Assembly (NCBI RefSeq): GCF_003334305.1
Contig: NZ_QOWS01000013.1
Strand: one strand, 5' to 3'
Source of the DNA: Escherichia coli
Lineage (GTDB): Bacteria > Pseudomonadota > Gammaproteobacteria > Enterobacterales > Enterobacteriaceae
DNA length: 64,000 bases
The notes beneath the pieces were generated by a model. That model had not been told where the DNA came from and searched no databases. It saw only the letters and a list, made by a program, of their open reading frames with translations. This document shows positions 29,855 to 38,669 of the stretch, piece by piece (positions within the stretch are counted from its first letter, which is position 1; each line of letters begins with the position of its first letter). The translations under genes were made by a program, and so were the position numbers.

Positions 29855-29941
29855 GCCGAGGTGGTGGAATTGGTAGACACGCTACCTTGAGGTGGTAGTG
29901 CCCAATAGGGCTTACGGGTTCAAGTCCCGTCCTCGGTACCA
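29855..29941 (+). tRNA. leuU: tRNA-Leu (anticodon GAG), 87 nt, class II with long variable arm
   Basis: Sequence GCCGAGGTGGTGGAATTGGTAGACACGCTACCTTGAGGTGGTAG...GTCCTCGGTACCA with the anticodon loop CTTGAGG and an encoded CCA end. Confidence 0.95.
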
Positions 29942-33389: not shown

Positions 33390-33425
33390 TTAATTAACTG
33401 ATGATGAGCCTGGATTTCCGCTCTC

Positions 33426-33445
33426 ACTGAATTTTTATGCAAAAT
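33426..33445. promoter_or_regulatory. Putative ARG box (ArgR operator half of the argG control region)
   Basis: cTGAATttttATGCAaa fits the ARG-box consensus TGAAT-N4-ATTCA with one mismatch. Confidence 0.4.
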
Positions 33446-33559
33446 AAATGAGTTTTCATTTAATCATCTTTTATCGGAGACAGGAAGAGTTTAGTGTGTT
33501 TTTTGTAAAATAATGCGCTTAAGGGAGAGCAGGAGAAGGCAAAAGTATTCAACAAATGA

Positions 33560-33585
33560 AAGTGAATTGGATATTCATTCACGTG
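33560..33585. promoter_or_regulatory. Putative ARG box pair upstream of argG
   Basis: Palindromic gTGAATtggatATTCAttcac; on the argG strand it reads TGAATgaatATCCA, close to the ARG-box consensus. Confidence 0.4.
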
Positions 33586-33721
33586 ATTAGCAATAAACGT
33601 TGACAAAATGTGGCATGGATCACTATAATGCCTGCAGATTTTACGTCCCGTCTCGGTACACCAAATCCCAGCAGTATTTGCATCTTTTACCCAAAACGAG
33701 TAGAATTTGCCACGTTTCAGG

Positions 33722-33798
<77 letters not shown>

Positions 33799-33919
33799 CT
33801 TTCCCTTAGAGTCCTTTTTCAAATATACTGTGAAGACTTCGGCCTTCGTAGTGGGATTTGAAAAAATCCTTCTGGAAAGTGCTCCAGACCGCAGTTGCGG
33901 TTATAGGGTTCAGTTATAT

Positions 33920-33946
33920 AAAGCCCCGATTTATCGGGGTTTTTTG
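33920..33946 (+). terminator. Leader terminator/attenuator hairpin between metY and rimP
   Basis: Hairpin AGCCCCGATTTATCGGGGT followed by T6. Confidence 0.65.
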
Positions 33947-33967
33947 TTATCTGACTACAGAATAACT

Positions 33968-33987
33968 GGGCTTTAAGCCCTTTTTTT
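33968..33987 (+). terminator. Second hairpin with T tract immediately upstream of rimP
   Basis: GGGCTTTAAGCCC followed by T7; a tandem arrangement with the preceding hairpin. Confidence 0.45.
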
Positions 33988-34004
33988 ATGTCTTGGGGGT
34001 GGGC

Positions 34005-34457
34005 TTGTCCACATTAGAGCAAAAATTAACAGAGATGATTACTGCGCCAGTTGAGGCCCTGGGTTTTGAACTGGTTGGCATCGAATTTATTCGCGGTCGC
34101 ACATCCACACTGCGCATCTATATTGATAGTGAAGATGGCATCAATGTTGATGATTGTGCTGATGTGAGCCACCAGGTAAGTGCTGTGCTGGATGTTGAAG
34201 ATCCCATCACCGTTGCTTATAACCTGGAAGTCTCCTCACCGGGTCTCGATCGCCCACTGTTCACGGCTGAACACTACGCCCGTTTTGTCGGAGAAGAGGT
34301 GACTCTGGTTCTCCGTATGGCGGTACAAAACCGTCGTAAATGGCAGGGCGTTATCAAAGCGGTAGACGGTGAAATGATCACAGTTACCGTCGAAGGTAAA
34401 GATGAAGTGTTCGCGCTGAGTAATATCCAGAAGGCGAACCTGGTTCCCCACTTTTAA
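34005..34457 (+). CDS. rimP: Ribosome maturation factor RimP (YhbC), 150 aa, TTG start
   Basis: Translation (M)[24 protein letters not shown] beginning at a TTG codon; the ORF track begins at another TTG 12 nt upstream. Confidence 0.88.
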
Positions 34458-34484
34458 TAGTCTGGATGAGGTGAAAAGCCCGCG

Positions 34485-35972
<1,488 letters not shown>

Positions 35973-35996: not shown

Positions 35997-38669
35997 ATGA
36001 CAGATGTAACGATTAAAACGCTGGCCGCAGAGCGACAGACCTCCGTGGAACGCCTGGTACAGCAATTTGCTGATGCAGGTATCCGGAAGTCTGCTGACGA
36101 CTCTGTGTCTGCACAAGAGAAACAGACTTTGATTGACCACCTGAATCAGAAAAATTCAGGCCCGGACAAATTGACGCTGCAACGTAAAACACGCAGCACC
36201 CTTAACATTCCTGGTACCGGTGGAAAAAGCAAATCGGTACAAATCGAAGTCCGCAAGAAACGCACCTTTGTGAAACGCGATCCGCAAGAGGCTGAACGCC
36301 TTGCAGCGGAAGAGCAAGCGCAGCGTGAAGCGGAAGAGCAAGCCCGTCGTGAGGCAGAAGAATCGGCTAAACGCGAGGCGCAACAAAAAGCTGAACGTGA
36401 GGCCGCAGAACAAGCTAAGCGTGAAGCTGCTGAACAAGCGAAACGTGAAGCTGCGGAAAAAGACAAAGTGAGCAATCAACAAGACGATATGACTAAAAAC
36501 GCCCAGGCTGAAAAAGCCCGCCGTGAGCAGGAAGCTGCAGAGCTCAAGCGTAAAGCTGAAGAAGAAGCGCGTCGTAAACTCGAAGAAGAAGCACGTCGCG
36601 TTGCTGAAGAAGCACGTCGTATGGCGGAAGAAAACAAATGGACTGATAACGCGGAACCGACTGAAGATTCCAGCGATTATCATGTCACAACTTCTCAACA
36701 TGCTCGCCAGGCAGAAGACGAAAGCGATCGTGAAGTCGAAGGCGGCCGTGGCCGTGGTCGTAACGCGAAAGCAGCGCGTCCGAAGAAAGGCAACAAACAC
36801 GCTGAATCAAAAGCTGATCGTGAAGAAGCACGCGCAGCAGTACGTGGCGGTAAAGGCGGAAAACGTAAAGGTTCTTCCCTGCAGCAAGGCTTCCAGAAGC
36901 CAGCTCAGGCCGTTAACCGTGACGTTGTGATCGGCGAAACCATCACCGTTGGCGAACTGGCGAACAAGATGGCGGTTAAAGGCTCTCAGGTCATCAAAGC
37001 GATGATGAAACTGGGCGCAATGGCAACCATCAACCAGGTTATCGATCAGGAAACCGCACAGCTGGTTGCTGAAGAGATGGGCCACAAAGTTATCCTGCGT
37101 CGTGAAAACGAGCTGGAAGAGGCGGTAATGAGCGACCGTGACACGGGGGCTGCGGCTGAACCGCGCGCGCCGGTTGTGACCATCATGGGTCACGTTGACC
37201 ACGGTAAAACCTCTCTGCTGGACTACATTCGTTCAACGAAAGTGGCCTCTGGCGAAGCGGGCGGCATTACCCAGCACATTGGTGCATACCACGTTGAAAC
37301 TGAAAACGGCATGATCACCTTCCTGGACACCCCGGGGCACGCCGCGTTTACTTCAATGCGTGCACGTGGTGCGCAGGCAACGGACATCGTAGTCCTGGTT
37401 GTTGCTGCCGACGACGGCGTGATGCCGCAGACCATCGAAGCAATCCAGCACGCGAAAGCGGCGCAGGTACCGGTGGTGGTTGCAGTGAACAAGATCGATA
37501 AACCAGAAGCCGATCCGGATCGTGTTAAGAACGAACTCTCCCAGTATGGCATCCTGCCGGAAGAGTGGGGCGGTGAAAGCCAGTTCGTACACGTATCTGC
37601 GAAAGCGGGTACCGGTATCGATGAACTGCTGGACGCTATCCTGCTGCAGGCGGAAGTTCTGGAGCTAAAAGCGGTACGTAAAGGTATGGCGAGCGGTGCG
37701 GTTATCGAATCCTTCCTCGATAAAGGTCGTGGTCCGGTTGCTACCGTTCTGGTACGTGAAGGTACTCTGCACAAGGGCGATATCGTTCTGTGTGGCTTCG
37801 AATACGGTCGTGTTCGTGCGATGCGTAACGAACTGGGTCAGGAAGTGCTGGAAGCGGGTCCGTCCATTCCGGTGGAAATCCTCGGCCTGTCCGGCGTACC
37901 GGCTGCGGGTGATGAAGTTACCGTTGTACGTGACGAGAAGAAAGCGCGTGAAGTTGCACTGTATCGTCAGGGTAAATTCCGCGAAGTTAAACTGGCGCGT
38001 CAGCAGAAATCTAAACTCGAGAACATGTTCGCCAACATGACCGAAGGCGAAGTTCACGAAGTGAACATCGTCCTGAAGGCAGACGTACAGGGTTCTGTGG
38101 AAGCGATCTCCGACTCCTTGCTGAAACTGTCTACTGACGAAGTTAAAGTGAAGATCATCGGTTCTGGCGTAGGTGGTATCACCGAAACCGACGCCACCCT
38201 GGCTGCGGCGTCCAACGCCATCCTGGTTGGCTTCAACGTACGTGCTGATGCCTCTGCACGTAAAGTGATTGAAGCGGAAAGCCTGGATCTGCGTTACTAC
38301 TCCGTCATCTATAACCTGATTGACGAAGTGAAAGCGGCGATGAGCGGTATGCTGTCTCCGGAACTGAAACAGCAGATTATCGGTCTGGCGGAAGTTCGTG
38401 ACGTGTTCAAATCGCCGAAATTTGGTGCCATCGCAGGCTGTATGGTTACCGAAGGTGTGGTTAAACGTCACAACCCGATCCGCGTTCTGCGTGACAACGT
38501 GGTTATCTACGAAGGCGAGCTGGAGTCCCTGCGCCGCTTCAAAGATGACGTTAACGAAGTCCGTAACGGTATGGAATGTGGTATCGGCGTTAAGAACTAC
38601 AACGACGTCCGCACTGGCGATGTGATCGAAGTATTCGAAATCATCGAGATCCAACGTACCATCGCTTAA
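35997..38669 (+). CDS. infB: Translation initiation factor IF-2, 890 aa (alpha form)
   Basis: G domain motifs GHVDHGKT and DTPGH; repetitive Ala/Glu/Lys/Arg-rich N-terminal region. Confidence 0.97.

Follow-up and report, generated by a model that had tools for sequence, protein, structure and literature searches.

Identity of the two hairpins

Two consecutive hairpins, each followed by a run of uridines, lie between the initiator tRNA gene metY and rimP in the E. coli chromosomal DNA analysed here (the window, a stretch of 64,000 nucleotides), and these signals are the long-known terminators t1 and t2 of the E. coli rimP leader. The original observation, made from the sequence alone, was confirmed and its interpretation was supported: t1 and t2 very probably constitute tandem intrinsic terminators that serve as the NusA-feedback attenuator of the metY-rimP-nusA-infB operon. 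Direct observation covers the hairpins and their location, the assignment to the Rfam family RF01770 and the strong sequence conservation, while termination at t1 and t2 and the feedback through NusA are drawn from the literature.

Both hairpins were recovered on the plus strand by a consensus scan and by folding, precisely where the sequence-only reading had placed two terminator-like structures and between the flanking genes that it had named. The first, t1 (33920–33946), has a 10-bp stem with five G-C pairs, a UUUA loop and a tract of six uridines; the hairpin itself, AAAGCCCCGA-UUUA-UCGGGGUUUU, occupies 33920–33943 and is followed by UUG. The second, t2 (33968–33987), comprises GGGCU-UUA-AGCCC (33968–33980), i.e., five base pairs of which four are G-C, and seven uridines at 33981–33987. 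In each case, a G+C-rich stem-loop stands directly 5' of a U run, as defines an intrinsic terminator. Folded alone, t1 reached -14.1 kcal/mol (z = -4.25), a value that none of 200 shuffles attained, while t2 reached -7.4 kcal/mol (z = -1.24) and was equalled by 29 of 200 shuffles. On energy alone, t2 does not exceed chance; it is comparative evidence that marks it as real, because its GGGC/GCCC core and U tract were invariant in 66 species and recurred in all eight distant loci described below. The surrounding 1.3-kb region contained five terminator-like sites when both strands were counted, against 1.0 ± 1.1 in shuffles, and four of the five were accounted for by two palindromes, each read on both strands. 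The complete interval of 206 nt folded with a z score of -3.93.

The 'Gammaproteobacteria rimP leader' model (RF01770) matched 33887–33987 with 102.8 bits against a threshold of 47 (E = 5.5e-18). The match spanned model positions 1–102 of 102, with t1 and t2 falling on the two helices of the model, and ended at 33987, immediately before rimP-nusA-infB, which lies on the same strand. Naville and Gautheret (2010, PMC2965389) described a general terminator of rimP leaders with a conserved GGGc..gCCC stem, also found in Firmicutes, and, in several Gammaproteobacteria, a second tandem terminator placed upstream with the inverse motif, CCCg..cGGG; NusA was considered the best candidate effector. The present leader is a full-length member of the family with both annotated hairpins in the order described, CCCCG..CGGGG followed by GGGC..GCCC, with a U tract after each. 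The same tandem arrangement was observed in 66 Enterobacteriaceae species, three other Enterobacterales and six of the eight distant loci. The consensus structure of RF01770 annotates neither the covarying hairpin at 33888–33901 nor any pairing of the AGGGUYCAG box.

The locus is that of the classic E. coli metY-nusA-infB leader (Ishii 1984; Regnier and Grunberg-Manago 1989; Granston 1990; as represented in PMC6511841), with identical DNA and promoter cores and two terminators between metY and rimP; nothing of substance differs from K-12, the metY allele being G46 here and A46 there. In the map of Brandi et al. (2019, PMC6511841), P-1 and P0 precede metY and P2 follows just after it, t1 and t2 stand upstream of rimP, t3 stands before rbfA, and two RNase III sites are given. 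The earlier description of this interval as the known attenuation and processing region of the operon was thus borne out, both by the RF01770 score and by the presence of t1, t2 and the RNase III sites in that map.

Two matches on the minus strand were rejected. The enterobacterial sRNA STnc430 matched 33912–34065, in antisense orientation to the terminators and the start of rimP, with 28.1 bits against a gathering threshold of 47 (E = 0.08), and the rimP leader model itself gave a reverse match of 23.6 bits, also below threshold. The palindromes of the terminator hairpins most likely explain these matches.

Conservation of the leader

With RimP as bait, 80 species-level loci were collected, all from Enterobacteriaceae, and 66 distinct leaders were aligned from the end of the tRNA to the start of rimP. 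Leaders from the Enterobacteriaceae loci were 195–216 nt long and showed two different regimes. The 5' half (33799–33903) was variable, with a majority fraction of 0.79–0.84 and with compensatory changes, while the 3' half (33904–34004) was almost frozen across the 66 species (0.94–0.97). For comparison, the majority fraction at the first, second and third codon positions of rimP was 0.967, 0.988 and 0.752; hence, the stretch of 100 nt between 33904 and the start of rimP was conserved like non-synonymous sites of rimP, loops and spacers included. Within the frozen block lie the loop of t1, the UUAUCUGAC..AAUAACU spacer and the Shine-Dalgarno region.

Among the 66 Enterobacteriaceae species, the CCCC/GGGG core of t1 was invariant, as were four G-C pairs of t2. 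The fifth pair of t2 was unpaired in 41 of the 66, and the conserved core is for this reason limited to GGGC-N5-GCCC. No covariation signal was found in t1 or t2 within this set, where only the upstream hairpins covaried; this follows from the block being nearly invariant.

More distant leaders were obtained in two ways. Loci from Yersinia, Xenorhabdus and Edwardsiella matched RF01770 with 92–102 bits. In addition, as the homologous-protein search gave relatives of at least 85% identity, eight distant loci, in which RimP was 52–66% identical, were retrieved through the representatives of clusters at 50% identity; these included Candidatus Profftia tarda and one locus from a cluster with Glaciecola punicea. 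An equivalent of t2, a GGG(C/U)..GCCC hairpin with a U tract, was present 17–35 nt before rimP in all eight, and an equivalent of t1, a CCCC..GGGG hairpin and U tract lying farther upstream, in six. The polarity of the stems never flipped, the first hairpin always having a C-rich 5' arm and the second a G-rich 5' arm, in agreement with Naville and Gautheret.

Other elements of the leader

The sequence-only reading had given 33799–34004 as the span of the leader with its terminator structures. Both terminators lie there, but the reading did not separate them from an internal promoter (P2) and an RNase III hairpin in the same span, which also contains two small hairpins, a conserved box and the ribosome-binding site of rimP.

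Three promoters were located on the plus strand. P-1 (33600–33629) scored 12 of 12 against the consensus and was identical to the P-1 core in Figure 5 of PMC6511841; P0 (33677–33706), with the structure TTTGCA-18-TAGAAT, was found by the consensus scan and matches the P0 core of the same source. P2 (about 33797–33839) has its -10 element, TATACT, at 33824–33829 and its start at 33836, and is identical to the published P2 core (PMC6511841). The rimP 5' UTR cloned by Adams et al. begins with ACTTCGG, which corresponds to 33836. The TTTTTCAAATATACT of P2 was nearly invariant in the 66 Enterobacteriaceae species. A further promoter inside the spacer between t1 and t2 was rejected, since the scan found no such promoter and inspection by eye showed no acceptable -10 hexamer 17 nt from TTGTTA.

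A long imperfect hairpin on the plus strand at 33815–33865 (-16.7 kcal/mol, z = -3.2) corresponds to the site at which RNase III processing sets the tRNA free. Its lower stem was 96% paired across the 66 species and its upper stem showed double changes in five of ten pairs. Gordon et al. (PMC5371410) located an RNase III site at MG1655 position 3318176. By the conversion MG1655 = 3318213 - (w - 33798), where w is the position in the window, which was derived from the Term-seq entry for the mature 3' end of metY, this site falls at about 33835, within the hairpin and beside the P2 start. It thereby agrees with the remark of Gordon et al. that the RNase III cleavage product resembles the P2 transcript (PMC5371410).

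Two small hairpins follow on the same strand. The first, CUGGA/UCCAG at 33872–33887, is weakly supported, with 80% of cells in the alignment paired and double changes in one pair. The second, ACCGC/GCGGU at 33888–33901, is structurally conserved: 98.8% of cells were paired and compensatory double changes affected four of its five pairs in the 66 species, which is the clearest covariation in the leader. Beyond it, the conserved 5' box UAGGGUUCAGUUAU (33904–33917, plus strand), a possible partner of the 5' flank of t2, was nearly invariant in Enterobacteriaceae, and its AGGGUCCAG is upper-case in the Rfam consensus. The spacer between the terminators, UUAUCUGACUACAGAAUAACU (33947–33967, plus strand), had a majority fraction of 0.94, and its UUUUUGUUAUcUg is likewise upper-case in the Rfam consensus.

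Relationship to NusA feedback

The terminators sit in the leader of a transcription unit that encodes NusA. P-1, P0 and P2 all lie before t1 and t2, such that their transcripts would reach nusA and infB only through read-through; the leader is an attenuator by its architecture, because transcription from the upstream promoters must read through two intrinsic terminators. The exception is transcription from the cold-inducible promoters that have been proposed before nusA and infB. Most transcripts would stop at t1 or t2 and a minority would read through. Termination would yield a tRNA precursor and a short leader RNA, RNase III freeing the tRNA at 33815–33865. As NusA stimulates hairpin-dependent termination, more NusA would result in less read-through, i.e., negative feedback. 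An element of this kind would gate the transcription of three upstream promoters into rimP, nusA, infB, rbfA and truB. Control of this sort, where a transcription factor acts through termination on the operon that encodes it, is of a textbook kind. The present data leave this picture unchanged; the comparative results define which nucleotides of the leader to mutate.

The 2011 study by Bylund reportedly placed the NusA feedback at the internal intrinsic terminators of the operon. Genetic evidence for the feedback in E. coli is attributed to Plumbridge (1985) and Bylund (2011), as cited in PMC2965389, PMC6511841 and PMC4448216; both PMC4448216 and PMC6511841 cite the latter for NusA-mediated feedback on the operon, and PMC6511841 relates from it that operon transcripts rise in mutants with reduced NusA-stimulated termination. 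In B. subtilis, NusA autoregulates by stimulating a terminator within the leader of its own operon (Mondal et al. 2016, as described in PMC12288461). The earlier claim that NusA autoregulates read-through in this leader was supported, with a qualification: the feedback on the operon is reported from E. coli genetics, while the direct demonstration of a leader terminator as its site is confined to B. subtilis.

NusA acts chiefly at weak hairpins (PMC12288461). The weak and widespread t2 is the likelier NusA-sensitive step, rather than t1, which would be a strong, lineage-specific addition of Gammaproteobacteria. The B. subtilis nusA (ylxS/rimP) leader is similar in having a terminator in the leader of the NusA operon, with a weak hairpin of the type that NusA helps and, according to PMC2965389, the same GGGC..GCCC motif; E. 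coli differs in that its leader also has the strong upstream t1, a tRNA gene and an internal promoter, and undergoes RNase III processing. A comparable arrangement occurs at gbs0413 (rimP) of S. agalactiae, where an intrinsic terminator before rimP-nusA-infB has been read as NusA feedback and where a short and a long transcript arise from one start site, but this leader has only one terminator, located 31 nt past the start site, and lacks a tRNA (PMC4448216).

Two reports concern cold shock. Cold-shock proteins were reported to lower termination in the metY-rpsO operon, i.e., Csp antitermination (PMC9765468). In northern blots, the patterns before cold shock and after it did not point to altered read-through (Brandi et al., PMC6511841).

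Transcript ends in vivo

Published 3' end maps gave a divided answer. The curated Term-seq lists for three growth conditions (Adams 2021, PMC7815308) contained no 3' end at t1 or t2: the mature metY end was listed at 3318213, with nothing at 33180xx or 33181xx, and Term-seq detected no 3' end for rimP in LB at OD 0.4 (Adams et al. preprint). In the DirectRNA-seq data of the same study, however, a coverage boundary was reported at 3318065, equivalent to 33946, the end of the t1 tail. Reads in windows of 800 nt placed upstream and downstream numbered 4269 and 196 without drug, and 3527 and 481 with bicyclomycin (Adams 2021). The absence of transcript 3' ends at these positions had been named beforehand as the outcome that would count against the proposal, and the Term-seq lists, read literally, come close to it, whereas the DirectRNA-seq boundary at the end of t1 agrees with termination there. 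The rimP leader of Salmonella accumulates as a ProQ-associated RNA derived from an attenuator. It is plausible that the missing Term-seq peaks reflect fast decay of the RNA after termination, or the thresholds of the lists beside a very abundant tRNA.

Alternative explanations

The same structures could be constitutive terminators that do nothing but end the metY unit, with NusA feedback exerted elsewhere, such as at t3, which precedes rbfA, or at further internal sites. Such a role would suit the strong, unconditional appearance of t1 and the lack of an antiterminator supported by covariation; it would also suit the unchanged read-through pattern in cold shock and the further promoters upstream of nusA and infB (Brandi et al., PMC6511841), and the literature names internal intrinsic terminators in the plural, t3 included (PMC6511841, PMC9765468). 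However, transcripts from P2 must pass both t1 and t2, although this promoter, upstream of the two, produces no tRNA. Furthermore, the t2 motif precedes rimP at loci where the 148–253 nt upstream hold no tRNA (L087 and L090), and in Firmicutes too (PMC2965389); the conservation of loops and spacers at the level of non-synonymous sites goes beyond the needs of a plain terminator; and a leader terminator has been tied to NusA feedback in S. agalactiae, as a proposal, and in B. subtilis, as a reported result. A purely constitutive role is quite unlikely. It is similarly improbable that the drop in transcription is partly Rho-dependent, with Rho either terminating in the leader or aiding the intrinsic terminators against competing structures. 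The boundary at 3318065 was indeed a bicyclomycin-sensitive peak (Rho score 2.97, p = 1.3e-38), the ratio of downstream to upstream reads rising from 0.046 to 0.136 with the drug (Adams 2021); in B. subtilis, Rho gives intrinsic terminators passive help by keeping antiterminator-like structures from forming (PMC12288461), and a competing helix was predicted here. Nonetheless, the boundary coincides with the tail of an intrinsic terminator, and a lacZ fusion to the rimP 5' UTR and ORF fell, rather than rose, in rhoR66S. Nor is there a C-rich, G-poor stretch: C made up 18–20% and G 23–26%, and the maximum excess of C over G was +1 in any 78-nt window of 33799–34200. A canonical Rho-dependent terminator was rejected on this lack of rut-like composition and canonical Rho action is unlikely, but a passive role, in which Rho would keep competing structures from forming as in B. 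subtilis, is possible by analogy.

The competing helix itself raises a further alternative, namely a switch in which the box at 33904–33917 pairs with 33962–33975 and sequesters the 5' arm of t2, such that a factor freeing or blocking the box would govern t2. The minimum-energy fold of 33887–33988 (-38.1 kcal/mol, z = -5.29) lacked t2 and contained this 14-bp helix, which has four G-U pairs, encloses t1 and takes up the 5' arm of t2; in E. coli, forcing t2 to form cost 3.2 kcal/mol, and the predicted equilibrium probability was 0.9 for the helix against 0.04–0.09 for t2. Both strands of the helix are upper-case in the Rfam consensus, and U33910C, the only common variant, present in three aligned genera, turns a U-G pair into C-G. 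Yet the helix was invariant rather than covarying, with one double change in one sequence, so that covariation is uninformative where nearly all positions are invariant. The balance was reversed in Buttiauxella, Mixta, Pantoea, Yersinia and Xenorhabdus, where the predicted probability of t2 was 0.8–0.95; Candidatus Profftia carried an uncompensated mismatch in the helix, and the Glaciecola-like leader had no box while keeping both terminators. As a conserved antiterminator, the helix was not supported, its dominance flipping between genera and its pairing being broken or absent in the last two loci; comparative support for the long-range pairing is poor, and a switch built on it in E. coli is doubtful. 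Sequence-specific reading of the leader, whether by NusA through its S1 and KH domains, by ProQ, or through a switch of the box and the t2 flank, may be suspected because the box, the t1 loop and the spacer are strictly conserved and the stem polarity never flips, but it too is doubtful; no description of such recognition or switching in E. coli was found in the literature consulted. Finally, the terminated leader RNA (from about 33836 to 33945 or 33987) might be a ProQ-bound sRNA, its conservation reflecting sRNA function and not attenuation. The Salmonella rimP leader is among the ProQ-associated RNAs derived from attenuators (Smirnov et al.), the primary sequence is strongly conserved in unpaired parts also, and the RimP leader was 'required' in Salmonella TraDIS. 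The last result would however be expected from polarity on nusA and infB, which are essential, the conserved block runs on into the Shine-Dalgarno region and start codon as befits a function in cis, the E. coli Term-seq lists contain no stable 3' end, and no target or phenotype was reported in the literature consulted. This explanation is very unlikely.

In the leader folded from the tRNA 3' end, i.e., before processing, another pairing was predicted: CUUAGAGUCC (33805–33814) paired with GGGCUUUAAG (33968–33977), comprising the 5' arm and loop of t2. According to the fold, this would be a second competitor of t2, present only before RNase III or tRNA processing.

Start region of rimP

The first protein gene of the operon begins with a TTG codon (34005–34007) that was invariant in all 66 species, and the called genes in five of the eight distant loci also began with TTG. 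The invariance of this rare start codon hints at selection on inefficient or regulated initiation. The Shine-Dalgarno region GGGGGUGGG (33995–34003, plus strand) was invariant or nearly so in the 66 species. In predicted folds of the read-through transcript it was mostly paired, G33995–98 with the 3' arm of t2 (33978–81) and G33999–34002 with CCAC at 34009–12, within rimP codons 2–3. A link between terminator structure and rimP translation is possible on the basis of these predictions.

No conserved leader peptide was found across the 66 aligned species, and no ORF beginning with ATG lies within the leader. A GTG ORF of 48 codons (33830–33976) was rejected as a leader peptide, neither its start nor its length being kept across species. 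An ORF of nine codons at 33988–34017 (ATG TCT TGG GGG TGG GCT TGT CCA CAT TAG) begins directly after the U tract of t2 and overlaps the rimP start in a different frame. It was likewise rejected, since its ATG was replaced by ACG or ATT in five of the 66 species, and it is probably not functional.

Gene order and the metY allele

The region 33400–34500 was 100% identical to many RefSeq genomes and was matched in all 5,426 complete E. coli genomes; the 206-nt span 33799–34004 was at least 99% identical in 5,422 genomes and contained no RefSeq feature. The RefSeq annotation under the match consisted of tRNA-Met, rimP and nusA, flanked by argG, infB and yhbX, and the gene order metY, rimP, nusA, infB on a single strand was confirmed. 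On the plus strand of the window, metY (33722–33798) was identified as an initiator tRNA-Met with anticodon CAT by ARAGORN and by the Rfam tRNA model (61.4 bits). RefSeq annotation and the ORF list placed rimP at 34005–34457, nusA, which encodes the factor proposed to exert the feedback, at 34485–35972, and infB (IF2) at 35997–38669.

The G46 allele of metY was recognized at position 33767, the 46th base of the gene, where the window has GAAGGTCG and K-12, in the sequence given in the Adams supplement, has GAAGATCG. For this purpose, the 46th base of metY was taken as tRNA position 46. The gene is presumably a major tRNAfMet1-type initiator, as in E. coli B strains, and not the tRNAfMet2 variant of K-12.

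In Yersinia, Xenorhabdus, Edwardsiella, Candidatus Profftia and one metagenome contig (L082, L083, L084, L085 and L089), secG, a tRNA-Leu gene and the initiator tRNA-Met gene are contiguous. In the window, yhbX and argG sit between tRNA-Leu (29855–29941) and metY. Because these two genes separate what is contiguous elsewhere, the order in E. coli resembles the outcome of an insertion into an older secG-leuU-metY-rimP cluster.
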